Below, piece after piece: positions 39,451-54,034 of a stretch of DNA of 64,000 nt. The notes under the pieces were generated by a model. The model made no database searches. It was not told the origin of the DNA and saw only the letters and a list, made by a program, of their open reading frames with translations. Numbering within the stretch: position 1 is the first letter of the stretch; each line of letters starts with the position of its first letter. This DNA is from Escherichia phage vB_EcoM_phAPEC6. A program made the position numbers and the translations under genes. The DNA is taken from the sequence record MK817115.1, one strand, 5' to 3'.

Positions 39451-39458
39451 AATCTTTT

Positions 39459-40594: not shown

Positions 40595-40650
40595 TTTGTT
40601 TCTCTCTCTGTGTTGGTATAGATACATAATACTAAAACAATTGAGTACTG

Positions 40651-40905
40651 TCAACGTGATATTAGTTTTATTTTTTTATTGTATTGTTGGTGTTCATATA
40701 GATTAATTTTTCCAGTACTCTCAATTACTATTCTATTGTTAGTGTCTACATCGATAACACGTAGTTTCCCGTTGCTTAACTTCCTGGGTAATAGACTACC
40801 ATTAATAAACTCATTAGCAAGCTGTACGGCCTTTGTGATGATTCTCTGTGGTGCTTTATAGTGTACCCGCAAGATATTATCTTTAGATAGTTGTACCTTC
40901 ATCAT
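40651..40905 (-). CDS. hypothetical protein (84 aa)
   Basis: ORF track; SD AGGAT. Confidence 0.6.
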   Translation of the reverse strand: MMKVQLSKDNILRVHYKAPQRIITKAVQLANEFINGSLLPRKLSNGKLRVIDVDTNNRIVIESTGKINLYEHQQYNKKIKLISR

Positions 40906-40920
40906 TTTAGTTTATCCTAT

Positions 40921-40946
40921 AAAAAAAGGCGGGAACTGAACCCGCC
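40921..40946 (-). terminator. intrinsic terminator
   Basis: hairpin GGCGGG-aactgaa-CCCGCC with T-run on minus side (A7 on plus) directly after stop of 40970..41365. Confidence 0.5.
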
Positions 40947-40969
40947 GTGTTGTTAGTACTGCAAAGTTA

Positions 40970-41365
40970 TTAGATAACCTGGCGGCGTTTACTGTATACT
41001 GTTACACGGTTTCCTTTACGGTCATGACGGATCTCTTTCTGGTTACGAATCAGTTCACTTGGACGCTTAAGGTTTGCCAGGTGATCCGCGTGAGTCCATG
41101 CATTTGCGTTAACTGTAACTTCAATATCAGAACCTTTCAAAAAGTCATCTTGAGCGTTCAGTACTTCAGCCAGTTCTTGAGCTTGCTTTAGTTCTGCTTC
41201 AGTAAGTACAGGCTCAGGTGAATTCACAATATCAGAGATCTCTTTGAACTGTACCGCCCAGCGTTGTCCTTTCGGTGCATCTTTGCCCATGTCTTTAAAT
41301 GTTTCACCTTCTTCACGAGCAACGATGCGAGCTTGTTCACGGGTAGCGAAGAATTTAGTAATCAT
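40970..41365 (-). CDS. hypothetical protein; paralog of 52987..53253
   Basis: ORF track; shares FATREQAR..TFKDMG..RKGNRVTVY with 52987..53253. Confidence 0.6.
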   Translation of the reverse strand: MITKFFATREQARIVAREEGETFKDMGKDAPKGQRWAVQFKEISDIVNSPEPVLTEAELKQAQELAEVLNAQDDFLKGSDIEVTVNANAWTHADHLANLKRPSELIRNQKEIRHDRKGNRVTVYSKRRQVI

Positions 41366-41464
41366 GGTGTACATCCTATTAGTTAAGTTAATTAGTACTA
41401 CAAGTTAGAGTCTATTATAAAGTACTATCTGGGCAATGTCAAATAGTACTTTAAATGGATTCTA

Positions 41465-41788
41465 TTACATGTCTTTTTTACGTTTTACATCGTAGTAACG
41501 AACTGTAATTTCTTTGTTGATCTCATCCTCAATTCTGTGTAGTACTTTCTCTTTCGGGTTGAAACCTATTACAGTTTCTTTAATGATCTCCAAGCCCGTG
41601 TATTCGCCTTGTGTACCGTAACCGTAAGTAAAGGTTTCATGTCCCAGGTCTTCCCAGCGGTCACCAATCAATGCAGACACGTAGCATGAGTGGTAAGTAT
41701 TGCCGTGGCTATCAGTCCACCGATTAACTTTAATGTCAAAGGAAGTTACAATTTTCATTTCTACTTTCTGGGCAAGGATCATAGTCAT
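41465..41788 (-). CDS. hypothetical protein; paralog of 47657..48001
   Basis: ORF track 107 aa; shared GNTY.S, YGYG, DVKRKKD with 47657..48001. Confidence 0.6.
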   Translation of the reverse strand: MTMILAQKVEMKIVTSFDIKVNRWTDSHGNTYHSCYVSALIGDRWEDLGHETFTYGYGTQGEYTGLEIIKETVIGFNPKEKVLHRIEDEINKEITVRYYDVKRKKDM

Positions 41789-41875
41789 TTTAATTTCTCT
41801 CTTTTTGTTAGGAAGGGAACCATTCCCCTCACTTGATGTAAACTATTATACAGTACTAAGATACTTTGTCAATAC

Positions 41876-42151
41876 TTAAGTATTGTAAATGTCGTGAATA
41901 GTGATAAAGTTTTTACGACCGTAAACATGTAAATCAGTATCAATGTAGTGCTTATCAAGTACATCCTCGACGCTTAAAGCCGTGTCGTGAATATCTTCAT
42001 AGAATTGTGGATCTACAATCTTACTTAAATCATCCGGCGTTAACTTATCATTGAGCCATTGCACCGCCTGGATATCTGCATCACGTTTCCAGTCTTCCAG
42101 GTTAGTAGTCAGTACTTGCTCGATTTCGTTAGCTGTCAGTAGAATCCGCAT
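41876..42151 (-). CDS. hypothetical protein (91 aa)
   Basis: ORF track; promoter + hairpin GTGGGGAActatTCCCCAC upstream. Confidence 0.6.
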   Translation of the reverse strand: MRILLTANEIEQVLTTNLEDWKRDADIQAVQWLNDKLTPDDLSKIVDPQFYEDIHDTALSVEDVLDKHYIDTDLHVYGRKNFITIHDIYNT

Positions 42152-42240
42152 TTTAATTTCTCTCTTTGTTAGGTGGGGAACTATTCCCCACTTGATGTAA
42201 AATATTATACAGTACTAAAAACTATTGTCAAACTATTTTA

Positions 42241-42441
42241 TCAAATTGTTTCCCATTTCATGTTACCCGCTTTACGCTGTGAAACAGGAATAAACATGTT
42301 ATTAATGTTACTAATATAACCGACCTGTAAGTCACGCTGTGAACCATACGCCCGACTTGCTGCATTTTTAGCACCGCGTTCTGATTTATAAACGCCGCTG
42401 GATACTGTAAAGCCTACTACACCGAAAGTAAAATGTTTCAT
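42241..42441 (-). CDS. hypothetical protein (66 aa)
   Basis: ORF track; SD AGAGGA; preceded by tandem promoters and structured leader. Confidence 0.6.
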   Translation of the reverse strand: MKHFTFGVVGFTVSSGVYKSERGAKNAASRAYGSQRDLQVGYISNINNMFIPVSQRKAGNMKWETI

Positions 42442-42507
42442 TTTGTATTCCTCTTTGTGGTTGATGTAAGTATTATACTCGTTTAATTTCTATTGTCAAA
42501 CTATTTT

Positions 42508-42581
42508 ATCAGGGGAGGTTTTCGTATGTCTTACTCCTGGACTACTTAACGGGGTTACTTATTTCGTTCCCCGTCCTGATG
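42508..42581 (-). ncRNA. conserved structured 5' leader element, copy 1
   Basis: ~75 nt between two sigma70-like promoters; closing stem ATCAGG/CCTGAT with two internal hairpins; near-identical copy at 52314-52389, diverged copy near 49351-49421. Confidence 0.35.
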
Positions 42582-42726
42582 TAAAACATTATACTTGATT
42601 CTAAGTACAATGCAAGTACTTTTTAAAAATAGTTTTCAGTACTTGATAGTACTAGCCACCAGCATATAATAGATACATTTATGCACCCTGTGGGTTAGAT
42701 TGTTTCTATGCATATATAATAGCAAA

Positions 42727-42754
42727 GGGACTGACCGGAGTCAATCCCTTTTTT
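42727..42754. terminator. intrinsic terminator hairpin (conserved repeat-element copy 3)
   Basis: GGGACTGAC-cgga-GTCAATCCC + TTTTTT. Confidence 0.45.
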
Positions 42755-42762
42755 AAATCTTT

Positions 42763-42912
42763 TTAAACTTGTTTTGGGTTGCGATATGTGATAGCGTTCG
42801 GGTACATTTGTTTAATGTTATTCCATGCCTGGTTAACATTGTAACCACTTGATCGAATCAGTTGGTTACTTCCTACGCCCTGAAACACTACTTCGAATAA
42901 GAATTCTTTCAT
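42763..42912 (-). CDS. small protein (49 aa), hypothetical
   Basis: own reading: MKEFLFEVVFQGVGSNQLIRSSGYNV...; ATGA overlap with upstream ORF; below track cutoff. Confidence 0.35.
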   Translation of the reverse strand: MKEFLFEVVFQGVGSNQLIRSSGYNVNQAWNNIKQMYPNAITYRNPKQV

Positions 42913-43079
42913 GCTGCAATCCCCTCTGATTTACCTTTACGCCAGGCGTTAGCCAGTTCATTACGTTGCCATACATCCAATGCAATGTATAGTTTAGCAG
43001 TATCCCCTTTAGGGTATTCGCCAGTAGTGCCTAACCGATAAAACAGATCTTTCAGTACTGATAATTCTACTTGGATCAT
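42909..43079 (-). CDS. small protein (56 aa), hypothetical
   Basis: own reading: MIQVELSVLKDLFYRLGTTGEYPKGD...; ATGA overlaps both neighbours. Confidence 0.35.
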   Translation of the reverse strand: MIQVELSVLKDLFYRLGTTGEYPKGDTAKLYIALDVWQRNELANAWRKGKSEGIAA

Positions 43080-43168
43080 TGTATTACTCCTGATTGTGTT
43101 AGTACTTCTACGATGGCATGAATGATCATAAGTACAGCTAACACAACAATCATCGGATTCATTTGCAT
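43076..43168 (-). CDS. hydrophobic micro-protein (30 aa), putative membrane peptide
   Basis: own reading: MQMNPMIVVLAVLMIIHAIVEVLTQSGVIQ; SD GAAGGAG 8 nt upstream. Confidence 0.35.
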   Translation of the reverse strand: MQMNPMIVVLAVLMIIHAIVEVLTQSGVIQ

Positions 43169-43185
43169 AAGCTGTACTCCTTCTA

Positions 43186-43398
43186 TTAATCTTTCAGCCA
43201 ATGATCTTGAATGAATTTTTCACAGAATCCCTGTTTCATAGATTCTAACAGGCGTTCACGGTGAGCGGCGGCATATTGCTCAGTACTATGCGTTACGCCA
43301 GGTTGATAACGTGAAACACCGTCCGGTCCGATATATTGAACATCCCACGGTTTTTCGTTAGTATCAGACCATTTACGAACGATTAGTTGACCTTGCAT
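43186..43398 (-). CDS. hypothetical protein (70 aa)
   Basis: ORF track; SD AGAGGAA. Confidence 0.6.
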   Translation of the reverse strand: MQGQLIVRKWSDTNEKPWDVQYIGPDGVSRYQPGVTHSTEQYAAAHRERLLESMKQGFCEKFIQDHWLKD

Positions 43399-43415
43399 GT
43401 TTCTTTCCTCTTAGT

Positions 43416-43476
43416 GGGGAGAATCATTTCTCCCCTTCATGTAAACTATTATACAGTACTATAATCTATTGTCCAG
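43416..43476 (-). promoter_or_regulatory. early-type promoter + 5' GC hairpin cassette (PeSL-like)
   Basis: TGGACA-N16-TATAAT then hairpin GGGGAGAA-tcat-TTCTCCCC. Confidence 0.55.
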
Positions 43477-43483
43477 TACTTTT

Positions 43484-43672
43484 TTACAGTTTATGAATCA
43501 ATTCTTTATCTAAGCGATAGCGTACATTATTAATGGTAACAGCATTATTTTTAATGCTACGCTGTACTGGCCCACCAGCAATAACAAACGTTGCTTTATT
43601 ACCCCGAACAATGATAGCACTACCAGGATTGCCAAAATCATCTTGTACTAAAATACTTGATAAGTTTTCCAT
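43484..43672 (-). CDS. hypothetical protein (~62 aa)
   Basis: ORF track 43484..43678; start moved 2 codons to Met behind SD AGAGGAA. Confidence 0.55.
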   Translation of the reverse strand: MENLSSILVQDDFGNPGSAIIVRGNKATFVIAGGPVQRSIKNNAVTINNVRYRLDKELIHKL

Positions 43673-43750
43673 TTTCATTTCCTCTTAGTAGGGGAAGACG
43701 TTTCCCCTTGATGTAAGTACTATAACAGTACTGGAAACTAAATGCAAGTA

Positions 43751-44107
43751 CTACGATAAAATCATGATAGGATATTCACTATCGATCAGTACTTCAAATC
43801 CAAAACTTTCATACCATTCTTTAAGATTAAAGGCGTTATCTTCTCCCGTATCGCATTCTAAAATGATACAATCTGAATCATCGGCGGCATCAATAAAGGC
43901 GTTCATCAATTCCGTACCTTCACCATTACCCCGACTAGCAGGATCAACATAAAGAGAATCAATAAACGCTACACGGTCATAATCAAGATCCGGTGCAATG
44001 ATTCCACGTTTAACAAACCAGTACTGCAATTGTGCTACTTTGCCCTGTACTTGATAGCCAGTGATCTCGCCATTGTCAGTAGTACGCGTGGTATGTTGTA
44101 TTCCCAT
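43751..44107 (-). CDS. GNAT-family N-acetyltransferase-like protein
   Basis: ORF track 118 aa; acetyl-CoA-binding-like RGNGEGTELM and C-terminal WYESFGFE resembling GNAT motifs A/B. Confidence 0.45.
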   Translation of the reverse strand: MGIQHTTRTTDNGEITGYQVQGKVAQLQYWFVKRGIIAPDLDYDRVAFIDSLYVDPASRGNGEGTELMNAFIDAADDSDCIILECDTGEDNAFNLKEWYESFGFEVLIDSEYPIMILS

Positions 44108-44170
44108 GATTTCTATCCTCAGTTAAGATATAAAATATTATACACTATCTTTCAGTACTGTCAATACTTT

Positions 44171-44428
44171 TTATCTCATAGATCTATGCCAACAATTACG
44201 CGGATCTCTTTTAAAAGTACTATCATGATCCTCCTGGCAAGTTATGCAATACTTACATCCCTTAACAGCCTGGCGGCGATTCTCAGGGATTTTATCGCCA
44301 CAGTCGAGGCAATGTATCAGTGATTCTATTTGTGCGTTAATTTGCTTTCTAGCGTGGTTTACGGCGGCCTGAATCACTGCGTTAATCTCGTCTTGCTCGG
44401 CCCCGTCTTTCGCGAATCCTACAGCCAT
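44171..44428 (-). CDS. TraR/DksA-type C4 zinc-finger protein
   Basis: ORF track 85 aa; CLDCGDKIPENRRQAVKGCKYCITCQ (CxxC-N17-CxxC, as in TraR/DksA family). Confidence 0.45.
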   Translation of the reverse strand: MAVGFAKDGAEQDEINAVIQAAVNHARKQINAQIESLIHCLDCGDKIPENRRQAVKGCKYCITCQEDHDSTFKRDPRNCWHRSMR

Positions 44429-44625
44429 TATTTTAACTTTTTTCTGTCATTGATTAATGCTTTCAGTACTATACTAATGATTTGCAATGATTCATCAATA
44501 ACTATAAAATTATTTTCTTTCATTAGATGATAGTTACCATTGATATTATATTCTAACGAGTACTGTTTACGTTTAATTTTTGATAATGTTTCTATTTGTT
44601 TTTGTACTGATTTCATGCTAATCAT
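44428..44625 (-). CDS. hypothetical protein (65 aa)
   Basis: ORF track; translationally coupled to downstream gene (TAATG). Confidence 0.55.
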   Translation of the reverse strand: MISMKSVQKQIETLSKIKRKQYSLEYNINGNYHLMKENNFIVIDESLQIISIVLKALINDRKKLK

Positions 44626-44730
44626 TGTTAAACGTCCTGTAACGCATTCTAACGAGATAAACGGTTTAGTACTGGCATTGTATAGGGTAATGGATTAAAG
44701 CCCACCAGCGTTAACCAGTGGGCTATAATC

Positions 44731-44874
44731 TTACATCTTGCGGATAATCTTAACAGTATCTTTCACCGATTTACCGTTTTGCTGACATTGTTCGATCATC
44801 GCGTATTGTTCTGCGGTCAGATCCTCGCCAGTTTTTGCCAGTACTGCATCGATGAATGAATCTAGTGCGATCAT
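44731..44874 (-). CDS. small protein (47 aa), hypothetical
   Basis: own reading: MIALDSFIDAVLAKTGEDLTAEQYAMIEQCQQNGK...; own promoter TTGACA-N16-TATAAT upstream. Confidence 0.35.
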   Translation of the reverse strand: MIALDSFIDAVLAKTGEDLTAEQYAMIEQCQQNGKSVKDTVKIIRKM

Positions 44875-44973
44875 TTTGTTTCTCTCTTAGGTTAAGTTAA
44901 CTACTGTTTATAAAACTTATTATACAGTACTATCAAACTATGTCAATATCTTTAATAGTACTGGTAATATATT

Positions 44974-45153
44974 TTAGCGGTAGTCGTCGTATGCTTTATT
45001 CACCTGGCGAATGTAACTTTCAAAGGCTTCGTCTACCGTTTCATACTCCCGAACATAATCACCATAGGAAACTACATACATCCCTTTTTGATCTTCAAAC
45101 GTCATGATGATAGAATCCAGGCCGATGATTTCAGTTTTTGCGATGATAGCCAT
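44974..45153 (-). CDS. small protein (59 aa), hypothetical
   Basis: own reading: MAIIAKTEIIGLDSIIMTFEDQKGMYVV...; SD AGGAA; own promoter TTGACA-N16-TATAAT. Confidence 0.4.
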   Translation of the reverse strand: MAIIAKTEIIGLDSIIMTFEDQKGMYVVSYGDYVREYETVDEAFESYIRQVNKAYDDYR

Positions 45154-45234
45154 TTTTAATTCCTTAGTAGTGTAGTTGATAAAACTTATTATACAGTACT
45201 ATCAAACTATGTCAATAGTACTGTGATAATATTT

Positions 45235-45447
45235 TTAGTTAATGATAGTCAGTGTAAAATTGTAATCCCCTGCCTGGTATAGTACTTTGTCGCCGAACGT
45301 ACCAACACGTTTCATATTGCAATAGATACCCATAACACTTTTTACATCTTTGATATTCCGAACGCCTGTGATATCCTTGTTGAAATTTTCATGATCAGAA
45401 AATAAAACTTGTTTTGCATTTTTCAGTACAGTGCAGATATTAGCCAT
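45235..45447 (-). CDS. hypothetical protein (70 aa)
   Basis: ORF track; SD AGAGAA. Confidence 0.6.
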   Translation of the reverse strand: MANICTVLKNAKQVLFSDHENFNKDITGVRNIKDVKSVMGIYCNMKRVGTFGDKVLYQAGDYNFTLTIIN

Positions 45448-45467
45448 TTTGATTTCTCTTTGTTAGT

Positions 45468-45527
45468 GGGGAGAACTATTCTCCCCTTGATGTAACTTAT
45501 TATACAGTACTATAATCTATTGTCAAA
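45468..45527 (-). promoter_or_regulatory. early-type promoter + 5' GC hairpin cassette (PeSL-like)
   Basis: TTGACA-N16-TATAAT then hairpin GGGGAGAA-cta-TTCTCCCC. Confidence 0.55.
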
Positions 45528-45540
45528 CTATTTTTTAATA

Positions 45541-45882
45541 TTATTCAAAATCTTCTGGACCGGACTGATAATCATCTTCACCGTATGCACTTTCTAACTT
45601 CTCGCCAGTGTGATCATCAGTTAGTGAGTCATCCTCATAGTTCACGTCTACGCCCGTGATGTAAAACTGGCTATCGTCTGGATCATTGAAATTAATTTTC
45701 TGAATGTTTACAATAACGGTATTGATGCCCAGGACACCGCCATCAGCAGTTACAAAGTACTGATAGTTTTCACAACCGCCTGTATTGAAACCGTAATTAA
45801 TTTCGGCCCGACCATCATTTAAACGCAGTGCCTGGGCGATGATTTCGTTTTCAAAGTTAGATTGAGCAATTGAGATAGTCAT
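45541..45882 (-). CDS. hypothetical protein (~113 aa)
   Basis: ORF track 45541..45945; start moved to MTISIAQS Met downstream of hairpin. Confidence 0.55.
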   Translation of the reverse strand: MTISIAQSNFENEIIAQALRLNDGRAEINYGFNTGGCENYQYFVTADGGVLGINTVIVNIQKINFNDPDDSQFYITGVDVNYEDDSLTDDHTGEKLESAYGEDDYQSGPEDFE

Positions 45883-46065
45883 GATTCGTTTCCTTATTAC
45901 CAGGGGAAACCGTTTCCCCTCTCGATGTAAAACATTATACGCCAATTGAGATAGTTTGCAAGTACTTTTTAAAAATAGTTTTCAGTACTCAATACTTATA
46001 TAATAGATACACTTATGCACCCGGTGGGCTAGTGAGCTATCTCTCAATGAATATATAATAGCAAA

Positions 46066-46094
46066 ATGGCTGACCGAAGTCAACCACTTTTTTC
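46066..46094. terminator. intrinsic terminator hairpin (conserved repeat-element copy 4, diverged)
   Basis: TGGCTGAC-cgaa-GTCAACCA + TTTTTT. Confidence 0.4.
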
Positions 46095-46096
46095 AT

Positions 46097-46231
46097 TTAT
46101 TTTTTAGCTTTCAGTACTGCCGCCTTTCGCGTCATGCCTTGCTTAATGTACTCCTTTACTTTCGCTTTACGTGCTTTCGCTTTATCTGCTTTCGTTTTAG
46201 GAGTACTGTAAATTAAACCGTTAGGATTCAT
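46097..46231 (-). CDS. small basic protein (44 aa), hypothetical
   Basis: own reading: MNPNGLIYSTPKTKADKAKARKAKVKEY... Confidence 0.3.
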   Translation of the reverse strand: MNPNGLIYSTPKTKADKAKARKAKVKEYIKQGMTRKAAVLKAKK

Positions 46232-46321
46232 TTAAATCACCATAAAGAATAGATAGGTTACTAACAATGCCGCGATCAATGCACCGATCACCGCTGAACT
46301 GTAATAAGCTAATGATTTCAT
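46232..46321 (-). CDS. hydrophobic micro-protein (29 aa), putative membrane peptide
   Basis: own reading: MKSLAYYSSAVIGALIAALLVTYLFFMVI; ATGA overlap with upstream gene stop. Confidence 0.3.
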   Translation of the reverse strand: MKSLAYYSSAVIGALIAALLVTYLFFMVI

Positions 46322-46500
46322 TTTTTAGCCTGGAAGTAATGTTTAATTTGTGCGGCGGTCAGTGCACAATTACGCAGGAAGTTTTCTGTATAACTGCGGC
46401 GAGTACTGAAAGAGAATTGACCTTTGCCGTTACCGATAGTAACATCAAACCGAGCGTTGTATTGTTTCATTTTGTTTCTCCTGTTATTGGGGAGAATCAT
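46318..46500 (-). CDS. hypothetical protein (60 aa)
   Basis: ORF track; SD AGGAG. Confidence 0.6.
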   Translation of the reverse strand: MILPNNRRNKMKQYNARFDVTIGNGKGQFSFSTRRSYTENFLRNCALTAAQIKHYFQAKK

Positions 46501-46549
46501 TTCTCCCCTTCATGTAAAACATTATACAGTACTAAAAACTAATTGCAAG
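46489..46549 (-). promoter_or_regulatory. early-type promoter + 5' GC hairpin cassette (PeSL-like)
   Basis: TTGCAA-N16-TATAAT then hairpin GGGGAGAA-tcat-TTCTCCCC. Confidence 0.55.
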
Positions 46550-46551
46550 TA

Positions 46552-46698
46552 CTATTTTTTAGATTTACGCAAACTTTCTACCATCTCAGGAGTAAGGCCA
46601 GGCGGGTAGGAAACCACTTCATCAACGAAACGTAAAGGGAATACCCCAGCGAAAGGTGAACATGCTTTCTTAGTATTACTCTTTTTTGATGCTTTCAT
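46552..46698 (-). CDS. small protein (48 aa), hypothetical
   Basis: own reading: MKASKKSNTKKACSPFAGVFPLRFVDEV...; preceded by promoter + hairpin GGAGAGAAtcatTTCTCCCC. Confidence 0.35.
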   Translation of the reverse strand: MKASKKSNTKKACSPFAGVFPLRFVDEVVSYPPGLTPEMVESLRKSKK

Positions 46699-46767
46699 TT
46701 CATATTCCTTAATTAGTGGAGAGAATCATTTCTCCCCTTCATGTAAAACATTATACGCGTTTAAAAA

Positions 46768-46977
46768 CTAATTGCAAGTATTATTTGAAAGTAAATGCTC
46801 ATACGCTGCATTAACTACGTTTTCAATAACCGACTGTACAGAAAGATCCCCCACGTCCTGGCTATAGTAGAAATCGCTTACAGTACTATCATCGTATGCA
46901 AATACTTTACCAGGATCTGCATCAATCACATACATATTAACCTTTAAGATGTCGATCTTATCCTGTACAGTAAGCAT
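46768..46977 (-). CDS. hypothetical protein (69 aa)
   Basis: ORF track. Confidence 0.55.
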   Translation of the reverse strand: MLTVQDKIDILKVNMYVIDADPGKVFAYDDSTVSDFYYSQDVGDLSVQSVIENVVNAAYEHLLSNNTCN

Positions 46978-46982
46978 ATTAA

Positions 46983-47255
46983 TTAACCTTTTAAGTACTG
47001 GCTTAAGTAGTCTTGTTGATCTTCGGTGATTGCAGCCATCTTCCCTAGTACTGGATTGATGATATAATCCCCTGTAACGTCCTGTAACGCATTCTCAGGC
47101 GGTTTAACGGCTGGGGTAGCCATAGCCATTGCCTGGACTTGTTCGACGCTGTAACGCTCATAAAGGCGGCATTCTTCCGGTGTTAACATAGCATCAGTAC
47201 GCTTCATCGGTTTAATGATGCTTTCGATCTCATTCAGTACTTGATTAACGTTCAT
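46983..47255 (-). CDS. hypothetical protein (90 aa)
   Basis: ORF track. Confidence 0.6.
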   Translation of the reverse strand: MNVNQVLNEIESIIKPMKRTDAMLTPEECRLYERYSVEQVQAMAMATPAVKPPENALQDVTGDYIINPVLGKMAAITEDQQDYLSQYLKG

Positions 47256-47306
47256 GGTATAATCCCCAATATAAGCGGCCTAAATCGACCGCTAACGATG
47301 TTTTGA

Positions 47307-47576
47307 TTAATAGGTGTATGGTTGACGCTCAAACAATGAATAGACGTTATACGCCCCGCTTATGGGCTTCGCTGGTAAATCAATTTTATATTGTTCACGC
47401 TTAAAGATAATAAAACGGCAATTGTTTTTAACATCAAAATTGATTGAACGTTCCAGGAGTTTACCATCGTGCACAAATACAAGATAACCGCTCGCTACTT
47501 GTTTTGTAGTACTGGTTGCAACCATAGACCGCCGAACATGTGTACCTGCATCAATTAAAGTACTGATATTTTTCAT
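47307..47576 (-). CDS. hypothetical protein (89 aa)
   Basis: ORF track. Confidence 0.6.
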   Translation of the reverse strand: MKNISTLIDAGTHVRRSMVATSTTKQVASGYLVFVHDGKLLERSINFDVKNNCRFIIFKREQYKIDLPAKPISGAYNVYSLFERQPYTY

Positions 47577-47656
47577 TATACTATCTTCTTAAGTTAATTT
47601 AATTTCTTTCCCCTATGCAGACACTATATCAAAGTATCTGCATAAAGTAAAGCTAA

Positions 47657-48001
47657 TTAAAGATCTTTTTTGCGTTTAACATCAGTTACCGAACTGTAAA
47701 CAGTGATATTATTGTCACGGCAAAAACGGGAAAGATAAGAACCGCGTAAAAACTCTTTATCTTCCATATTAATAACCTTGCTAAATTCTTCCATTGCTAC
47801 AGTGTCAAAGTGATCCCCGTATCCATATTGGAACGGCACGTTTACTACTTCAATAAAATTACCATCAATTTCTACGTCTACACTTAAAGAGAAATAAGTG
47901 TTACCATATGAAGCCTGGAACCAACGCCGAGCGGCAATATGTACAACTTCAACAGAAGACAGGTTGATATTTTGTTTTGCGATAGTGTTGATATTAGCCA
48001 T
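47657..48001 (-). CDS. hypothetical protein; paralog of 41465..41788
   Basis: ORF track 114 aa; shared GNTY, YGYG, DVKRKKD motifs. Confidence 0.6.
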   Translation of the reverse strand: MANINTIAKQNINLSSVEVVHIAARRWFQASYGNTYFSLSVDVEIDGNFIEVVNVPFQYGYGDHFDTVAMEEFSKVINMEDKEFLRGSYLSRFCRDNNITVYSSVTDVKRKKDL

Positions 48002-48082
48002 TTTAATTTCCTCTTAGTTGTCTTGATAAAATCTATTATGCCAGTACTATCAAACTATGTCAATAGTACTGTGATAATATTT

Positions 48083-48226
48083 TTACTTACTTTTTGCTTT
48101 CTTTGCTGCTTCCACCTGGTCGGCCCATTCTTTACCCCATACTTGTAAATTATAATGGTACTGGCAAAGTGCAACGCCCCGCTTTAAACCAGTAATAGAT
48201 TTTTTACCACATTGACAAGTTTTCAT
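48083..48226 (-). CDS. small Cys-containing protein (47 aa), hypothetical
   Basis: own reading: MKTCQCGKKSITGLKRGVALCQYHYNLQ...; preceded by promoter + hairpin. Confidence 0.35.
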   Translation of the reverse strand: MKTCQCGKKSITGLKRGVALCQYHYNLQVWGKEWADQVEAAKKAKSK

Positions 48227-48312
48227 ATTAGTTTCCTCATTATCAGGGAGAACCATTTCTCCCCTTGATGTAATGTATTATACTTTATCTGATTTACTTT
48301 GCAAGTACTTTT

Positions 48313-48540
48313 TTAATTTAATTCATCCAGGCAAAGGATACGCTCAACGCCCAAATCAGTTAAACTAATCGACGGCACTTGATAGGTTTCAATGTATGCT
48401 ACACTTGCCCACTGACCGAACTCATTAACGGCCCATTTATCCATTGCAAAATGCAATTCCGCACCTTTCTTATTAGTAATTACAGCAACAGTAGAAGAAT
48501 TGCCAGTAGTACCAGTTACGCGAGTGATTACGATAGCCAT
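48313..48540 (-). CDS. hypothetical protein (~75 aa)
   Basis: ORF track 48313..48597; start moved to MAIVITRV Met downstream of hairpin. Confidence 0.55.
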   Translation of the reverse strand: MAIVITRVTGTTGNSSTVAVITNKKGAELHFAMDKWAVNEFGQWASVAYIETYQVPSISLTDLGVERILCLDELN

Positions 48541-48775
48541 TGTTTTAATTCCTTTGATTTGGAAGGAGAACCGTTTCCCCCTCTCGATGTAAAACATTAT
48601 ACGCTAATCTCTTAATCGTGCAAGTACTTTTTATTACTTTTTGCAAAATACTTTAAACGCACTCAATCGCGTTCTTACAGCCTTAACGCCACCAGCTAGG
48701 GCAATGCATCAGATAATCAGTTTAATGCGTTAGAATCGATTCTAGGCGGTGCTGGTGGCCTGGTAAACGTTAAAC

Positions 48776-48803
48776 ACAAAAAAGCCCACTTATGCAGTGG
48801 GCT
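48776..48803 (-). terminator. intrinsic terminator
   Basis: hairpin AGCCCACT-tatgc-AGTGGGCT followed by T-run on minus (A-run on plus) after stop of 48825..49307. Confidence 0.5.
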
Positions 48804-48824
48804 AGTGATTCAGTACTTTAATTG

Positions 48825-49307
48825 TTATGCTTCCACTTTGCGATGAGCTTCGATCCATTCCTCGCGAGTCATACCGCTGGAGTTAATCGCATCCAGTACT
48901 ACCGCAATGCAGTTACCACGCACCGGAATCAGATATTCTTCCCCGTTGTCCAGTACTACCGCTACACGTTTTTGAATCCATTTTTTAGGCTTAGATTCCG
49001 GCTTATCTTCCCCATACTTAACCGCCAGGGCTTTTTGTGCCATCTCTGTAACTACTTCCAGATCCAATCCAACTACTGCCGCCTGAATACTTTCAATTGT
49101 TGCTTGTAGTTCTGCTTCACGGGCCGCCTTTGCCGCTTCAATTTCTGCCGCTTTATTTGCTTGTAGTTCTTTCGCAGTACTATAAGCGATGTTAAAATTA
49201 TTGCGTACCGCTTTCATGGTATCGTTATCCAGATCAGCCAGGATCTCTGCCGCGACGTTAGTTTCATTTGCTACCAGTGCTTTGATGAATGATTTTACAT
49301 TAGCCAT
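48825..49307 (-). CDS. hypothetical protein (~160 aa), Ala/Glu-rich central helix
   Basis: ORF track 48825..49322; start moved to MANVKSF Met behind SD GAGGAT. Confidence 0.6.
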   Translation of the reverse strand: MANVKSFIKALVANETNVAAEILADLDNDTMKAVRNNFNIAYSTAKELQANKAAEIEAAKAAREAELQATIESIQAAVVGLDLEVVTEMAQKALAVKYGEDKPESKPKKWIQKRVAVVLDNGEEYLIPVRGNCIAVVLDAINSSGMTREEWIEAHRKVEA

Positions 49308-49350
49308 TTTATAAATCCTCAATTAAAGTTTAGTTTACGTTGGTTAGTGT

Positions 49351-49421
49351 ATCAAAGTTTTCTCGACGTGTCCAGTTTTTCGTTCGACTTACTGGCGGTC
49401 TACTTAGTGCTCCCCGTCTTG
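49351..49421 (-). ncRNA. structured 5' leader element, diverged copy 3
   Basis: partial sequence similarity to leaders at 42508-42581 and 52314-52389; sits between promoter TTGACA-N16-TAGAAT and gene start. Confidence 0.25.
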
Positions 49422-49510
49422 ATGTAATATATTCTACGCCTTTTTGCGGTAATGTCAACTATTTTTTAAAACTATTTTCAAAGTATCTCAGTACTACGAT
49501 ACTACAAAAA

Positions 49511-49534
49511 CAAAAAAAGCCCACCAGGTGGGCT
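49511..49534 (-). terminator. intrinsic terminator
   Basis: perfect hairpin GCCCACC-a-GGTGGGC with T-run on minus side (A7 on plus) after stop of 49541..49771. Confidence 0.5.
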
Positions 49535-49540
49535 ATGTAC

Positions 49541-49771
49541 TTAATCAGTAATTAAAACATTAAACACTTTATCATTTAACGTTATGGGTGTACTGCTACC
49601 AGGCTTGAGATCAGTTAGTACACCTGCAATAGCTTTTTCATTGGCGACCTTTCCAGTGTCCAACAGTACTACAGTACTGATAAGATTAACGCTCGTTTCA
49701 ATATCATAATGCACGGCGTTAAGTAGTTGTGTAGTACTGCTTTCGTTAAGTAAAACAATTCGCTTAGTCAT
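49541..49771 (-). CDS. hypothetical protein (76 aa)
   Basis: ORF track. Confidence 0.6.
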   Translation of the reverse strand: MTKRIVLLNESSTTQLLNAVHYDIETSVNLISTVVLLDTGKVANEKAIAGVLTDLKPGSSTPITLNDKVFNVLITD

Positions 49772-49792
49772 GATGTTACCCCGTAGTATCTA

Positions 49793-50092
49793 TCAACGGC
49801 AATTAATAACGCCAGTATGAGTTACTTTCTCAGTATCCATAACAGTGACCGAACCGCGTTTAGTACTTGCATCGTAATAAATTGTCGTGCTACCGTTTTC
49901 GTCTTCTTCATGGAACGGGCCGTTTTTAAATGCTTCCGGCTGGATCTCTAAATCCTTTAAAACAATCTCGCCAGTACTTTCATCGGTCATTGCAACAGTG
50001 CACTGAATGAATTTTTCACTACTTACATCTAATGACGCATTAACAGCGAAAGAGGAAACAGATAAAGCCAGGGCGATGATTGCAATTTTCAT
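49793..50092 (-). CDS. small secreted/exported protein (N-terminal signal peptide)
   Basis: ORF track 99 aa; N-term MKIAIIALALSVSSFAVNA has signal-peptide features; SD AGGAT. Confidence 0.5.
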   Translation of the reverse strand: MKIAIIALALSVSSFAVNASLDVSSEKFIQCTVAMTDESTGEIVLKDLEIQPEAFKNGPFHEEDENGSTTIYYDASTKRGSVTVMDTEKVTHTGVINCR

Positions 50093-50112
50093 TTGATTAT
50101 CCTTAGTTACCA

Positions 50113-50173
50113 GGGGGAACCGCTCCCCCCTTGCGATGTAAAATATTATACAGTACTAAAAACTAATTGCAAG
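50113..50173 (-). promoter_or_regulatory. early-type promoter + 5' GC hairpin cassette (PeSL-like)
   Basis: TTGCAA-N16-TATAAT then hairpin GGGGGAA-ccg-CTCCCCC. Confidence 0.55.
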
Positions 50174-50177
50174 TACT

Positions 50178-50414
50178 TTATGATTTTTTATAAAACATTT
50201 CGGCAGTGATATTTTTACCCGTTGGTTGTACTTTATCCAGAATTTTTTGATGTCCAGGGCGACCAAATGAATAAGATCCGTAAACCGTAAACCAGTAGTT
50301 ACCCTCAGTGTTTACATGTACAGCACAATAGGGAACGCCCCGCGATTCATCACTAGTAAAGTGTGATACCGTACCCGTTACATTCGCAGACGTTGATTTG
50401 ATTTGTTCGACCAT
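50178..50414 (-). CDS. hypothetical protein (78 aa)
   Basis: ORF track; SD AGGAA. Confidence 0.6.
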   Translation of the reverse strand: MVEQIKSTSANVTGTVSHFTSDESRGVPYCAVHVNTEGNYWFTVYGSYSFGRPGHQKILDKVQPTGKNITAEMFYKKS

Positions 50415-50522
50415 TTTCTTATTCCTTAGTTACCAGGGGAACCGCTCCCCCTATGCAAAACATTATACGCGTTTAAAAACTAATAGCAAGTATTTTAATA
50501 AAAAGTATTTGGAAAATAATTG

Positions 50523-50551
50523 TTGACAAGTGCATCCAGTACTGGCATAAT
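50523..50551 (+). promoter_or_regulatory. plus-strand sigma70-like promoter (antisense orientation)
   Basis: TTGACA-N17-CATAAT on plus strand; no plus ORF downstream. Confidence 0.4.
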
Positions 50552-50621
50552 TACTACATCAAGACGAAACAGTCACTAACCCACCGGGTGCCGAGATCCG
50601 TCTATTAAATGATTCAGTACT

Positions 50622-50650
50622 AAAAAAAGAAAGGGGATCAATTGATCCCC
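50622..50650 (-). terminator. intrinsic terminator
   Basis: perfect palindrome GGGGATCAATTGATCCCC with T-run on minus side, directly after stop of 50657..50878. Confidence 0.55.
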
Positions 50651-50656
50651 TCGTTG

Positions 50657-50878
50657 TTATTTTGTAAGGTATAAACAGAAGTCACCTTTATTTGCTACGC
50701 CGCCAGTGTAACGCGAGGAATAGTTAGAAACGTCCTGGACTTCTGCTATTACCAGGGTATCATCATTCAATTCGTCGCAGAAGCAAACGGCTGGATCTTG
50801 TACGCCGATATTGTCGGCATGTTCCCGCATAGATTTAACCAGTGCTTCAAGTTGGGAAAGAGTAGTGATATTAGCCAT
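50657..50878 (-). CDS. hypothetical protein (~73 aa)
   Basis: ORF track 50657..50908; start moved to MANITTLS Met downstream of hairpin. Confidence 0.55.
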   Translation of the reverse strand: MANITTLSQLEALVKSMREHADNIGVQDPAVCFCDELNDDTLVIAEVQDVSNYSSRYTGGVANKGDFCLYLTK

Positions 50879-50961
50879 TTTATTTTCCTCATTACCAGGG
50901 AGAACCATTTCTCCCCTTGATGTAAACTATTATACAGTACTAAAAACTAATTGCAAGTACT

Positions 50962-51243
50962 TTAACTGTAAGATCCGCAACGGTCGCAGTAGTGCCCCTC
51001 GTCATCGTCAACGAATTGACCAACGAAATTATCTACTTTCGCTTTCAGGTTATTATAATCGTTTTCTACTTCATTTAAACGCTTCTGGTAGTATTCCAGT
51101 GCTTTAAGATATGCCGCATCAGCAGTTTTCTCCTGCATAGCTAAATTCATGCCACGCGTTTCATCGTACAGCCAAAAACCATCGGTGCACTGGCTAATAG
51201 ATAATGACTTGCTTAGTACTGTATAGTTAATTACTTTACTCAT
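50962..51243 (-). CDS. hypothetical protein (~93 aa), Cys-rich C-terminus
   Basis: ORF track 50962..51324; start moved to MSKVINYT Met downstream of hairpin GGCGGGAAccatTCCCCGCC. Confidence 0.55.
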   Translation of the reverse strand: MSKVINYTVLSKSLSISQCTDGFWLYDETRGMNLAMQEKTADAAYLKALEYYQKRLNEVENDYNNLKAKVDNFVGQFVDDDEGHYCDRCGSYS

Positions 51244-51301
51244 TAGATAAACCCTCAATAAAGGCGGGAACCATTCCCCGCCATTGTTACAGTACTGAAT
51301 A

Positions 51302-51541
51302 TTACATTCCAACCATTGCAGCACGGATCGCAGTAGTGCTATACTTAAAGCCGTCCGGCGTTGTAGTAGTACCGTTGGCTTTTAATCTGCGGTACATGCA
51401 TTCCGCTGCAATATCTTTAGTTCTACTTTGTGCGATACAACTTTGTGCAAGCCGATACAATGACTCACCGTTATTAATCCATAAGGAAACATTCCAATGA
51501 GTTTTGTTTTTGTGCCCGTTGTAAGTTTTAGTACTAGCCAT
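51302..51541 (-). CDS. hypothetical protein; paralog of 53339..53578
   Basis: ORF track 79 aa; shared HKNKTHWNVSLWINN..LYRLAQ..PDGFKYSTTAIRAAMVGM. Confidence 0.65.
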   Translation of the reverse strand: MASTKTYNGHKNKTHWNVSLWINNGESLYRLAQSCIAQSRTKDIAAECMYRRLKANGTTTTPDGFKYSTTAIRAAMVGM

Positions 51542-51633
51542 TTTTTTTAATCCTCGTTTGAGCGGGGAACCACTCCCCGCCTCGATATAAAGTATTATAC
51601 GCTTTTAAACTTAGTTTGCAAGTACTTTTTAAA

Positions 51634-52245
51634 TTAATATTCGATTGATTCTACTACGCCATCAATAACATTGAATTGATATTCGTTACCCTCAATCAGT
51701 GCTGTAATGTTTTCAGTAGTGAATTGATCCTCATATGCATTCTCTAAATCACGGTACAACTTGCGGGATAATTCACGAATAGTTTCAGTGAGTAGTTCCT
51801 CAAGCTCATTAACTAACGTTTCTTGTTTTGCGGTTAAATCAGTGTAAGCCGATTCAATGTACCCGCTTACAGTGTTTTCATGCGAGTAGTGGGAGTGAGA
51901 ACGCTTTACACTCATCGCCAAATCATCTTCATTCAGCAGGTGACGGATTGAGCGATACTTAGTTAATGCTCTTACCTTGCGTAAAAACTTCACTGCGTCA
52001 ACGTGGTCAGTACTGATTGATGCACCGTCACCCTGGGACCAAAAACCACTGAATTGTATTTCAGCGTCATTAATGCCATATTCCGGCAATACTGTTTCTT
52101 TATAGTGTTCAATTTCACTTTCAGAAAAATAATCGTCGTTTGAGTTTTTTTCACGTTCCCGAACCAGTTCGATAGCTGACGTTTTTTGTTCTGCGTTCAA
52201 TTCAGAAAAATCCATAACATAAGTAGTAGTAGTGATAGTTTTCAT
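51634..52245 (-). CDS. acidic hypothetical protein (203 aa)
   Basis: ORF track; SD AGGGT; preceded by tandem promoters and structured leader copy 2. Confidence 0.6.
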   Translation of the reverse strand: MKTITTTTYVMDFSELNAEQKTSAIELVREREKNSNDDYFSESEIEHYKETVLPEYGINDAEIQFSGFWSQGDGASISTDHVDAVKFLRKVRALTKYRSIRHLLNEDDLAMSVKRSHSHYSHENTVSGYIESAYTDLTAKQETLVNELEELLTETIRELSRKLYRDLENAYEDQFTTENITALIEGNEYQFNVIDGVVESIEY

Positions 52246-52313
52246 TTTGTAACCCTCATTCAGTAGTTTATGTAAGTATTATACGCTTTTAAAAACAATT
52301 GTCAAACTATTTT

Positions 52314-52389
52314 ATCAGGGGAGTTTTTCGTGTGCCTTACTCCTGGGCTACTTAACGGGAAGTTACTTATTTCGTTCCCCGTCCTGATG
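52314..52389 (-). ncRNA. conserved structured 5' leader element, copy 2
   Basis: near-identical to 42508-42581 with some differences falling in predicted stems; flanked by promoters TTGCAA..TATAAT and TTGACA-N16-TATAAT. Confidence 0.35.
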
Positions 52390-52467
52390 TAAAACATTAT
52401 ACGCCTTTAAACATAGTTTGCAAGTACTTTTTAAAAATAGTTTTCAGTACTGAATAGTAAAAAGGTA

Positions 52468-52496
52468 TTGACAGCACTATCCAGTACTGGTATAAT
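52468..52496 (+). promoter_or_regulatory. plus-strand consensus sigma70 promoter (antisense orientation)
   Basis: perfect TTGACA-N17-TATAAT on plus strand; no plus ORF follows. Confidence 0.45.
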
Positions 52497-52670
52497 ATAC
52501 CCCATGACAACAGCTAACCCACCGGGTGCACAATTGTAACTGTACTAAACTACTTTTTCTATAGATACACTCCCGCACCCTATGGGCTACGGCTTATCTG
52601 CCAATGAATACATTATGCCAGTACTGACAAAATAAGTCAATACCGGCAATTGTAAAGATTTGTAAACTAC

Positions 52671-52901
52671 TTATACTGCAATCGCGTCCAGGCTATAATA
52701 ATAATAAGTGCCGTATTGGTGTACTTTATTACCTTTTATTTCAGTACTGAATGAATCCGAACGATTGGCATATGATGTTAATTTATAGTACTTTACTTTA
52801 CTAATACGTTGCCATACACCGCAGATCCGCTGTAAGTAAGTAGTTTTATTTGTGGTAGTATCTTTTACGGCTTTCAATTCGATCATATACATAGTGGTCA
52901 T
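52671..52901 (-). CDS. hypothetical protein (76 aa)
   Basis: ORF track; SD AGGAG. Confidence 0.6.
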   Translation of the reverse strand: MTTMYMIELKAVKDTTTNKTTYLQRICGVWQRISKVKYYKLTSYANRSDSFSTEIKGNKVHQYGTYYYYSLDAIAV

Positions 52902-52986
52902 TTTATTACTCCTTGCTTTAGTGGGGAACTATTCCCCACCTGATATAAAGTATTATACGCGTTTAAACTTAGTTTGCAAGTACTTT

Positions 52987-53253
52987 TTATTCAAGTACTG
53001 CGATCTTTTTAATACGGTACACGGTCACGCGGTTGCCCTTTCGGTCGAGCTTTATTTCTACCACTCGACGCGATACACTATCAGGACTTTTCAACGCCGC
53101 TAACCAGTACTGTAATGATCTGGCGGTACTACGCTTTACAATGGCCCAACGTTTACCACGTTCCGATTGTACGCCCATATCTTTAAACGTTGCCCCGTCC
53201 TGGCGTGCGGCGATCCGAGCTTGTTCACGCGTCGCAAAATACTTAATATTCAT
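52987..53253 (-). CDS. hypothetical protein; paralog of 40970..41365
   Basis: ORF track 52987..53289; start moved to MNIKYFATREQAR Met behind SD AAGGG. Confidence 0.6.
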   Translation of the reverse strand: MNIKYFATREQARIAARQDGATFKDMGVQSERGKRWAIVKRSTARSLQYWLAALKSPDSVSRRVVEIKLDRKGNRVTVYRIKKIAVLE

Positions 53254-53338
53254 GCTGTTGCCCTTATCGTTGGTGTATGAATAAAACACTATTATAAAGT
53301 ACTATCGCAAAAAATGATAGTACTTTAAATAAATTCTA

Positions 53339-53578
53339 TTACATTCCAACCATTGCAGCACGGATCGCAGTAGTGCTATATTTGAATCCGTCCGGTGTTT
53401 TATCTTGTCCAGTCTGTTCTAAAAATAACATCATATGACGGGCCGCATCATTACGATTAGTATTGGCGGCAATAAAGTCCTGGGCCAACCGGTATAATGA
53501 TTCATCGTTATTAATCCAAAGGCTTACATTCCAATGAGTTTTGTTTTTGTGACCTAAGAACATTTTTGATTTAGCCAT
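53339..53578 (-). CDS. hypothetical protein; paralog of 51302..51541
   Basis: ORF track 53339..53617; start moved to MAKSKMFLGHKNKTHW Met by paralog alignment and SD GAGGAT. Confidence 0.6.
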   Translation of the reverse strand: MAKSKMFLGHKNKTHWNVSLWINNDESLYRLAQDFIAANTNRNDAARHMMLFLEQTGQDKTPDGFKYSTTAIRAAMVGM

Positions 53579-53671
53579 TTTTTTAATCCTCTTATATAGT
53601 GGGGAACTATTCCCCACCTGATGTAAAACATTATACGCTTTTAAACATAGTTTGCAAGTACTTTATTAAAC

Positions 53672-54034
53672 TTATTCGTAAATTTTGCCACTGTCAGCCC
53701 ATACCAGGAAACGAGGCATATTATCCCATGCATCTTGTTTTAAATTTAAACCGTGTAATACTTCTGTACTTTCCATTCCTGGTACTGGTTTACTATACAC
53801 CGCAAATAGTTCACCCATATACTGATAAGCCATCGTTAAATCACTGGCGATCATCTTATGGATCATCGCATCAAGCATCACGGTAGCGGCGTATTGTTCA
53901 CGCTTAAGCGGTAACATTGCAATAAGTTCCCGATAAGCTGAAATGTGAATTTTTACCGTTTCAGCCGGAAGACCTTTCATCTCTTCACGGAAGTTAACCA
54001 GGTTAGCAATAATTTTATTGATTTGAGTCGCCAT
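53672..54034 (-). CDS. hypothetical protein (~120 aa)
   Basis: ORF track 53672..54091; start moved to MATQINKI Met downstream of hairpin AGCGGGAAgtgtTCCCGCT. Confidence 0.55.
   Translation of the reverse strand: MATQINKIIANLVNFREEMKGLPAETVKIHISAYRELIAMLPLKREQYAATVMLDAMIHKMIASDLTMAYQYMGELFAVYSKPVPGMESTEVLHGLNLKQDAWDNMPRFLVWADSGKIYE

Follow-up and report, generated by a model that had tools for sequence, protein, structure and literature searches.

Repeated promoter cassettes and probable module exchange among the predicted early genes of Escherichia phage vB_EcoM_phAPEC6

A stretch of 64,000 nucleotides (nt) from Escherichia phage vB_EcoM_phAPEC6 (sequence record MK817115.1; called the window in the following) was analyzed with respect to duplicated genes and the repeated regulatory elements in front of them. 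Judging by its matches to other phages (see below), the source is a RaK2-like jumbo phage of the genus Asteriusvirus. About 20 kb of the window carry 31 copies of a promoter cassette, in most of which the promoter is followed by a leader hairpin, and three dispersed pairs of small homologous genes are found among them. The pairs are ordinary old paralogs, and the cassette system around them is the more interesting result. Homology-driven exchange between the repeated cassettes probably moves modules that consist of a promoter and a small gene and that would be self-expressing.

Three gene pairs and their promoter-plus-gene units

The analysis started from the original prediction that three pairs of short open reading frames (ORFs), scattered over this region, are duplications. 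All six ORFs are present on the minus strand (Table 1), and the pairs (here called A, B and C) are true homologs rather than chance matches. Each pair falls into a single PHROG (A, 8127; B, 6246; C, 871). In pairwise BLASTP comparisons, C1 and C2 are 67% identical over all 79 amino acids (aa) (E 2e-38), A1 and A2 are 36% identical (E 4e-20), with a central insert of ~45 aa in A1, and B1 and B2 are 30% identical over their full length (E 2e-10). When 429 ORFs from both strands were compared all-vs-all without bias, the same three pairs were the only dispersed protein pairs in 40-54 kb. Pfam assigns both C proteins to DUF7249 (C1, 50.7 bits; C2, 45.4 bits; both above the gathering threshold of 27 bits). 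Beyond this, Pfam, NCBIfam, PADLOC and sequence searches against PDB returned nothing significant on the functions of families A, B and C.

A separate promoter precedes each of the six genes. It is a hairpin cassette for C1, C2 and B1, and a promoter without a hairpin for A1 and B2. A2 has its own upstream region, which is homologous to that of A1 and in which the -35 box has decayed. The DNA homology between C1 and C2 (75% over 349 nt) begins 2 nt beyond the stop codon and breaks off where the cassette ends upstream, so that the duplicated unit is exactly one cassette and one gene. For A1 and A2 (70% over 186 nt; 53173-53344 with 41285-41470), homology runs from the stop codon of the preceding gene through the promoter and into the gene. 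For B1 and B2, two short patches are left, one at the promoter and one at the 3' end. Judged by the extent of this DNA homology, the duplicated units are modules.

The window was compared with seven other Asteriusviruses from the GenBank phage records (vB_Ec-M-J, SHEFM2K, fEgEco12, PBECO4, G17, Salmonella phage SD-6_S16 and SP27). Each copy is conserved at 85-100% in its own slot across these relatives, and the duplications thus predate the radiation of the genus. Conservation of A1, A2 and C2 is given in Table 1; B1 is conserved at 92-94%, and C1, where present (five relatives), at 95-100%. C1 and C2 differ from each other to the same degree in every genome (65-67% identity). The C1 module and the B2 slot are exceptions to the fixed slots. 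In fEgEco12, family 71 takes the place of the C1 module, and in G17, family 80 does so; the breakpoints lie in cassettes. Two forms occur in the B2 slot, one of 114 aa in the window, SHEFM2K and SP27, and one of 107 aa in five other genomes. The 107-aa form shares 33% identity with B2 and 36-38% with B1. This swap of alleles is bounded by the start and stop of the gene and not by cassettes, which suggests diversifying selection or a gene-precise exchange by a different route. Family 71 occupies different slots in fEgEco12 and in vB_Ec-M-J and PBECO4, and was therefore considered as a recently moved gene. This was rejected because the two forms have diverged (54 vs 77 aa); they are another dispersed homolog pair, not a fresh transposition.

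The distribution of the copies was determined by tblastn against phage records. Family A occurs only in RaK2-like jumbo phages. It has two copies in every Asteriusvirus and a single one in RaK2, K64-1, Hallingskeid and fHe-Yen9-03, which suggests that the gene was duplicated in an ancestor of the Asteriusviruses. Families B and C each have one genus-specific copy and one that is part of a pool common to ~150 kb coliphages. The C2 lineage is found as a single copy in ~150 coliphages of 136-156 kb (80-96%), while matches to C1 of 90% or more are limited to Asteriusviruses (next best match 71%). For family C, 336 homologs were found in all. B2 has 77% DNA identity to a counterpart in phage tuntematon (see below), while B1 is confined to Asteriusviruses. 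In these two families, the second copy may stem from an old duplication or from a second acquisition. The three pairs probably consist of true paralogs, or of homologs acquired separately, and belong to early genes that are driven by the host RNA polymerase. There is allelic mosaicism, too. The A1 and B1 proteins are 99% identical to those of 121Q and only ~85% and ~93% identical to those of SHEFM2K, so that the B1-A1 patch (40970-41788) is 121Q-like inside an otherwise SHEFM2K-like region.

Anatomy of the promoter cassette

A profile hidden Markov model (HMM) was built from the repeats of the region, and nhmmer found 31 copies with it (E 1e-25 to 1e-3), all within 36518-55413. The cassettes are located among ORFs of about 40-200 aa, 30 of the 31 being on the coding strand, and none is found in the other 44 kb of the window. 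Repeated promoter cassettes, as originally predicted, do exist, but to call them near-identical was an overstatement. The 50-nt cores have a mean pairwise identity of 63% (random 50-mers, 26%) and a maximum of 98%, and just 13 of 406 core pairs reach 90% or more, so that near-identity holds only within cassette subfamilies.

On the coding strand, the order of elements is TAAAAAGTAC, TTGCAA or TTGACA, a spacer of 16-17 nt, TATAAT, the leader GTTTTACATC between the -10 box and the hairpin, the hairpin, a ribosome-binding site (RBS) and ATG. The tract TAAAAAGTAC is AT-rich and UP-like, and lies directly 5' of the -35 box in most cassettes. Thirteen promoters match the sigma-70 consensus perfectly (12/12; TTGACA-16/17-TATAAT), and ~12 have the form TTGCAA-16-TATAAT, all of them on the coding strand of the same 20 kb. 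Promoter activity of the cassettes is predicted from this consensus. About 24 of the 31 promoters carry the hairpin, while the ~7 that do not form a second subtype (...GATAGTACTg-TATAAT). The stem has 7-9 bp with a GGGG..CCCC core and a free energy of about -13 to -16 kcal/mol. The geometry is fixed, with the stem starting 10-12 nt and the ATG 46-55 nt past the -10 box; an AGGA/GGAG motif is found 5-9 nt before the ATG. Among 54 distinct hairpins from nine genomes, the sequence of the inner core is kept, and pairing is also kept further out, where the bases vary. This covariation is supportive only, since the stems were picked by folding.

If transcription starts ~7 nt after the -10 box, 4-6 nt separate the hairpin from the mRNA 5' end, and this closeness suggests mRNA stabilization. 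We infer that 5' mRNA stabilization or attenuation is the most likely role. The hairpin may possibly attenuate read-through or be a binding site for a shut-off factor. A role as intrinsic terminator, as in the name of the promoter-early stem-loops (PeSLs) of T4-type phages, was considered and, as a claim from the sequence, set aside: no U-run was seen after the cassette hairpins, and the candidates for canonical terminators lie elsewhere (directly after A1, see Table 1, and at 48783-48803, 49518-49534 and 50631-50652). With matches up to E 0.1 allowed, Rfam had none for 35.5-57.5 kb.

Three side observations concern the cassettes. Many hairpins read GGGGAGAAATGGTTCTCCC, so that the loop contains an ATG with a GGAG before it (e.g., 50900-50925 and 48250-48275). 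Such loop ATGs (GGAGAAATGG) give spurious ORF starts in mechanical ORF lists (e.g., 'MVLPGNEE...' and 'MFYIERGK...') and could mislead gene callers. At three places on the minus strand (52290-52400, 42484-42592 and 49330-49435), what comes after a cassette promoter is not a gene but a non-coding leader of ~75 nt, which is conserved. Its sequence (ACATCAGGACGGGGA...TAAGTAG.CC..AGTAAG.C..ACGAAAA.CT) has no Rfam match, and in two of the three cases another promoter, a perfect one, follows directly. The leader could act as a small RNA or in regulation. A repeated hairpin with a 12-bp stem, AAAGGGATTGACTCCGGTCAGTCCCTTT, is found on the minus strand at 42724-42751, 37151-37178 and 46063-46090; a TTGACT hexamer is part of the hairpin, and TATTAT comes after it. 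It belongs to a ~100-nt repeat just upstream of some cassettes. A stem-loop ahead of a promoter is the classic PeSL layout.

Breakpoints, gene order and the exchange of modules

Alignments with the seven relatives were chained to collect events inside the part of the window that is equivalent to their direct terminal repeat (see below). There are 21 unique indel or replacement events. Of their 42 breakpoints, 25 fall into HMM-defined cassettes, which make up 14.5% of the sequence (binomial p 2e-11). Cassettes and consensus promoters taken together (17.3% of the sequence) contain 30 of the 42 (p 2e-14). Among the breakpoints called intergenic on the basis of rough ORF calls, 15 of 16 are in cassettes or promoters, compared to 48% expected (p 1.5e-4). 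For example, PBECO4, G17 and Salmonella phage SD-6_S16 cleanly lack a module (43735-44154) with a GNAT acetyltransferase gene (43751-44107) and its cassette, and both breakpoints of this module are in cassettes.

In six events, sequence of 55-108 nt is shared at the junction. The junction cassettes are in-register hybrids, i.e., the single cassette of the shorter genome matches the upstream flanking copy in its 5' part and the downstream copy in its 3' part. Three-way alignments resolved hybrid junctions at the family 91 module beside B1, at the family 94 module and at the gene 42241-42441, which only the window has. The switch point falls inside the cassette in all three. The crossover in the B1 cassette is seen relative to the family 91 module, which six relatives have. 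At the site of the window-only module, the relatives have a single promoter, whose sequence is a hybrid between both copies of the window.

Phage tuntematon (genus Phapecoctavirus, Stephanstirmvirinae) has a genome of 150 kb. It shows the same architecture, with ~40 small genes on the same strand, gaps of ~85 nt and 10 hits of the cassette HMM. A synteny comparison had been suggested as a check along with the original prediction, and between these phage groups it is positive. Ten families (12 window genes) are shared in scrambled order, and their order is uncorrelated (Spearman rho 0.04, p 0.9). Five adjacent units of tuntematon correspond to window genes at 54.0, 45.1, 47.9, 53.6 and 45.4 kb. 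DNA homology between the window and tuntematon comes in blocks that are one gene long (70-86% identity), and the block shared at C2 takes in the RBS, the hairpin and the -10 box. The cassette HMM also has hits in ~150 kb contigs beside homologs of family B. A query with only the cassette found 9-14 copies per repeat in every Asteriusvirus. Weaker copies were found in other RaK2-like phages (Munch, 7t3, the Erwinia Eneladusviruses, Serratia BF and Yersinia fHe-Yen9-03) and in one 145 kb coliphage.

Module-sized duplications, breakpoints in cassettes, hybrid junctions and scrambled order support the proposal that cassettes are shuffled by recombination between repeated regulatory modules. We infer that this recombination is driven by homology, and the direction ascribed to each event is likewise a presumed one. 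In the mechanism that we favor, each gene copy would be a self-contained module (AT-rich tract, sigma-70 promoter, usually a leader hairpin, RBS and small ORF), and the cassettes of 60-100 nt, with ~30 copies in the same orientation, would provide portable homology. Homologous recombination between two cassettes would delete, duplicate, insert or replace whole modules and would leave the expression of neighboring genes intact. The two cassettes could be from the same genome, from co-infecting relatives, or from this phage and another coliphage with the same cassette type, and the same region would be a substrate for recombination between terminal repeats. The A, B and C pairs would be old products of such exchange. 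Exchange would still be running, as suggested by the presence or absence of C1, the alleles of the B2 slot, the GNAT module and the window-only gene.

Several points weigh against this reading. The pairs are old and, apart from the C1 module and the B2 slot, occupy fixed slots in all relatives, so that they record ancient duplication or acquisition of modules rather than ongoing shuffling and say little on current rates. Since gene order is colinear within the genus, where only the presence, absence or replacement of modules differs, shuffling in the sense of reordering applies only in comparison with a distant phage group. Three events lack an association with cassettes (49800|49535, 44427|44437 and the gene-precise replacement of the B2 allele). 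Events across relatives are phylogenetically non-independent, and the intergenic mask is rough because ORF calls overlap cassettes. Part of the breakpoint enrichment is to be expected from selection, because indels of whole genes end in intergenic sequence, much of which is filled by cassettes. Cassette similarity does not depend on distance (Mantel p 0.14), and there is thus no signal of local gene conversion. Such conversion would predict that similarity falls with distance.

The strongest alternative extends the point on selection. Illegitimate recombination would occur anywhere, survivors would be those that end between genes, and cassettes would be alike through promoter constraint. Between genes, cassettes account for 38-47% of the sequence, so that many of the breakpoints that survive are to be expected there in any case, and the three events without cassettes, among them the gene-bounded replacement of B2, fit as well. 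Nevertheless, we consider this explanation unlikely. Illegitimate joins would not yield in-register hybrid junctions with the switch inside 55-108 nt of shared sequence, the 15 of 16 intergenic breakpoints exceed what the share of cassettes predicts, and conservation goes beyond the needs of a promoter, spanning the spacer, the leader GTTTTACATC and the hairpin.

A second alternative is dedicated mobility, in which the GGGG..CCCC inverted repeat would be the target of a phage recombinase or nuclease and modules would be excised as integron-like units, e.g., as mini-circles. The PeSL authors considered the same possibility for their GGGG..CCCC stem-loops and detected mini-circles (PMC2839356). 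Here, the inner hairpin core is conserved in sequence beyond pairing, and a crossover that could be resolved falls between hairpin and RBS. Promoters without the hairpin, however, bound module indels as well (42457|42243 and 40591|40386), and crossover zones vary among events. No recombinase or nuclease domain was found among the region genes scanned, most small ORFs being outside those scans. We consider a dedicated system improbable. Finally, that the pairs are chance similarities, or an artefact of two terminal-repeat copies in one window, has only the shortness of the proteins in its favor and can be dismissed, given the E-values (2e-10 to 2e-38), the PHROG common to each pair, the same pairs in relatives, and the position of both copies, 30-67% identical, inside one repeat copy.

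Homology-driven exchange between cassettes remains our preferred reading. A bolder version, to which we give little credence, is that the cassette is the attachment point of a commons of early genes among presumably unrelated large coliphages, namely Asteriusviruses of 350 kb and Phapecoctavirus-type phages of 150 kb. Modules would travel as mini-circles that reinsert at any cassette, possibly with a factor that recognizes GGGG..CCCC, in an integron-like exchange of genes for host takeover and anti-defence. The early regions of jumbo phages contain many small genes without an assigned function, which likely include such genes. If self-expressing modules are bounded by a common cassette, this explains the mosaicism of the region and predicts the sites of new genes. 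The cassette could then be used to find early genes in new genomes and to set the limits of modules for cloning, and would be a safe landing site when engineering therapeutic phages. Near-identical modules in coliphages of 350 kb and 150 kb point to a gene pool common to phage groups with the same host.

Genome setting and comparison with known systems

The closest match to the region is SHEFM2K (94.7% identity over 98% of the region length). About 40 other Asteriusvirus jumbo phages (PBECO4, 121Q, G17, etc.) match it patchily, with 30-60% cover in many pieces. Direct terminal repeats of Asteriusviruses are ~21 kb long. That of fEgEco12 has 20,993 bp, as determined by PhageTerm and restriction mapping (PMC13070987), and the record of vB_Ec-M-J has its repeat annotated at 1-21,525. 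In alignments, position 1 of both records corresponds to window position 55,770, and the inner repeat ends (20,993 and 21,525) to ~35,690. As both ends map in this way, the six paralogs are inside the terminal-repeat equivalent (Table 1). By colinearity, the phage itself presumably carries a direct terminal repeat, one copy of which is contained in the window. The genes of this part would be transcribed inward from the genome end. Their early timing is predicted from the consensus sigma-70 promoters and from this position. The recognizable genes of the region (a GNAT acetyltransferase, a DksA/TraR zinc finger and a kinase-like protein below the Pfam threshold) would fit host takeover.

Table 1. 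Gene pairs, their promoters and associated features in the window
Feature	Position	Strand	Evidence or conservation
Terminal-repeat equivalent; predicted early-gene hyperplastic region with all cassettes and the six paralogs	35690..55770	.	colinearity with fEgEco12 and vB_Ec-M-J
Hairpin directly after A1, with T-run, resembling an intrinsic terminator	40928..40946	-	sequence scan
A1, 131-134 aa, phrog_8127	40970..41374	-	99% to 121Q, 84-86% to most relatives
A1 promoter, perfect TTGACA-17-TATAAT, no hairpin	41414..41442	-	sequence scan
B1, 107 aa, phrog_6246	41465..41788	-	only in Asteriusviruses, 92-99%
B1 promoter cassette of the hairpin type, hybrid junction cassette	41782..41875	-	nhmmer; three-way alignment
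Window-only module: gene 42241-42441 and two flanking consensus promoters that share a 55-nt direct repeat	42204..42499	-	absent from all 7 relatives
B2, 114 aa, phrog_6246; slot with two very different alleles in the genus	47657..48001	-	BLASTP, PHROG
B2 promoter, TTGACA-17-CATAAT, no hairpin	48035..48063	-	sequence scan
C1, 79 aa, DUF7249 / phrog_871, polymorphic module	51302..51541	-	in 5 of 7 relatives
C1 promoter cassette of the hairpin type, within the 349-nt C1/C2 duplicated unit	51536..51637	-	nhmmer E 2e-22
A2, 88 aa, phrog_8127	52987..53253	-	93-100% in relatives
A2 upstream region, TATAAT with decayed -35 box	53254..53338	-	homologous to the A1 promoter region
C2, 79 aa, DUF7249 / phrog_871	53339..53578	-	96-100% in all 7 relatives; 96% aa identity to Phapecoctavirus homologs
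C2 promoter cassette of the hairpin type, TTGCAA-16-TATAAT followed by hairpin GGTGGGGAATAGTTCCCCACT	53571..53675	-	nhmmer E 4.7e-23

Other features were observed near the boundaries of the terminal-repeat equivalent and beyond. The stretch 54200-55770 is ORF-poor and has promoters on both strands without convincing genes. It contains ~12 copies of an 8-bp periodic repeat, TAGCCGTC (54864-54962), which is ~0.8 kb from position 55,770, the counterpart of the physical left end of fEgEco12 and vB_Ec-M-J. This stretch with its repeat could be related to packaging, the terminus or replication. The sign of the GC skew switches at ~56 kb. Directly inside the inner boundary, a gapless tandem array of more than 20 paralogous genes for ~70-aa proteins begins (29600-35630, minus strand; phrog_4148 in the annotation of SHEFM2K), and its copy number varies among relatives. 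A second tandem family on the minus strand (16638-20695) has at least 6 copies of ~150-aa paralogs (29-58% identity), with more distant members at 9.7-13.5 kb. Just beyond the predicted genome end, there is an array of ~60-aa paralogs (56000-60030, minus strand; phrog_11711 in SHEFM2K). It is followed by three ~390-aa paralogs on the plus strand (60341-63937; 54% and 24% identical), the counterparts of which are annotated in relatives as 'regulator of chromosome condensation' or 'DNA condensation protein'.

In a literature search of incomplete coverage, no paper was found that describes cassette shuffling in Asteriusviruses or Phapecoctaviruses. Three known systems are nevertheless similar in part. 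Phage T5 resembles the region in that its early genes are transcribed by the host polymerase from very strong sigma-70 promoters and in that they lie in a long direct terminal repeat, at the genome end that is expressed first. The repeat of T5 has ~10 kb and is not organized as some 30 repeated cassettes. We know of no sequence relationship between T5 and this region, nor of a two-step DNA transfer in Asteriusviruses.

The RaK2-like phage CBB has RpoD-like promoters with UP-like elements, of which there are 18 genome-wide (Buttimer et al. 2017, PMC5259590). As in the window, consensus host-type promoters precede short hypothetical ORFs, which were taken as early genes for host takeover. Some of them are in the terminal repeat of ~22 kb, and paralogs are listed. 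The paper, however, describes no leader hairpin, no repeat family of cassettes and no link to indels or shuffling (PMC5259590).

The closest resemblance is to the PeSLs, which were described in the T4-type phages RB49/phi1, PST/T4 and nt-1/KVP40 (Arbiol et al. 2010, PMC2839356; Comeau et al. 2014, PMC4122927). Both systems have a repeated intergenic cassette with an AT-rich tract, a near-perfect sigma-70 promoter, a stem-loop with a G-tract and a C-tract, a Shine-Dalgarno sequence and an ATG. Both are concentrated in a hyperplastic region of small ORFans, and both are found at the borders of insertions, deletions and replacements that distinguish close relatives, where crossovers fall between promoter and ATG. 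The junctions of PeSL mini-circles lie in the same zone as the switches in the hybrid cassettes (PMC2839356). There are several differences. The stem-loop is fixed here at 10-12 nt after the -10 box, in the leader, while those of PeSLs are varied and mostly within or upstream of the promoter. In one of the five PeSL subclasses, though, the stem-loop is downstream of the -10 box and before the start site, a similar position (PMC2839356). The U-run is absent here, a terminator function would be putative, and about a quarter of the promoters are without a hairpin. The setting is a RaK2-like jumbo phage with a direct terminal repeat of ~20 kb, in contrast to the internal hyperplastic regions of T4-like myoviruses, and the cassette type and modules are common to Phapecoctavirus-type phages. 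Because the window is from an Asteriusvirus, this is the same kind of element in a new lineage and not the PeSL of a T4-like phage. As far as can be judged from the sequence, the region matches the modular shuffling of the PeSL type that has been described for T4-like phages, and adds a new lineage to it.

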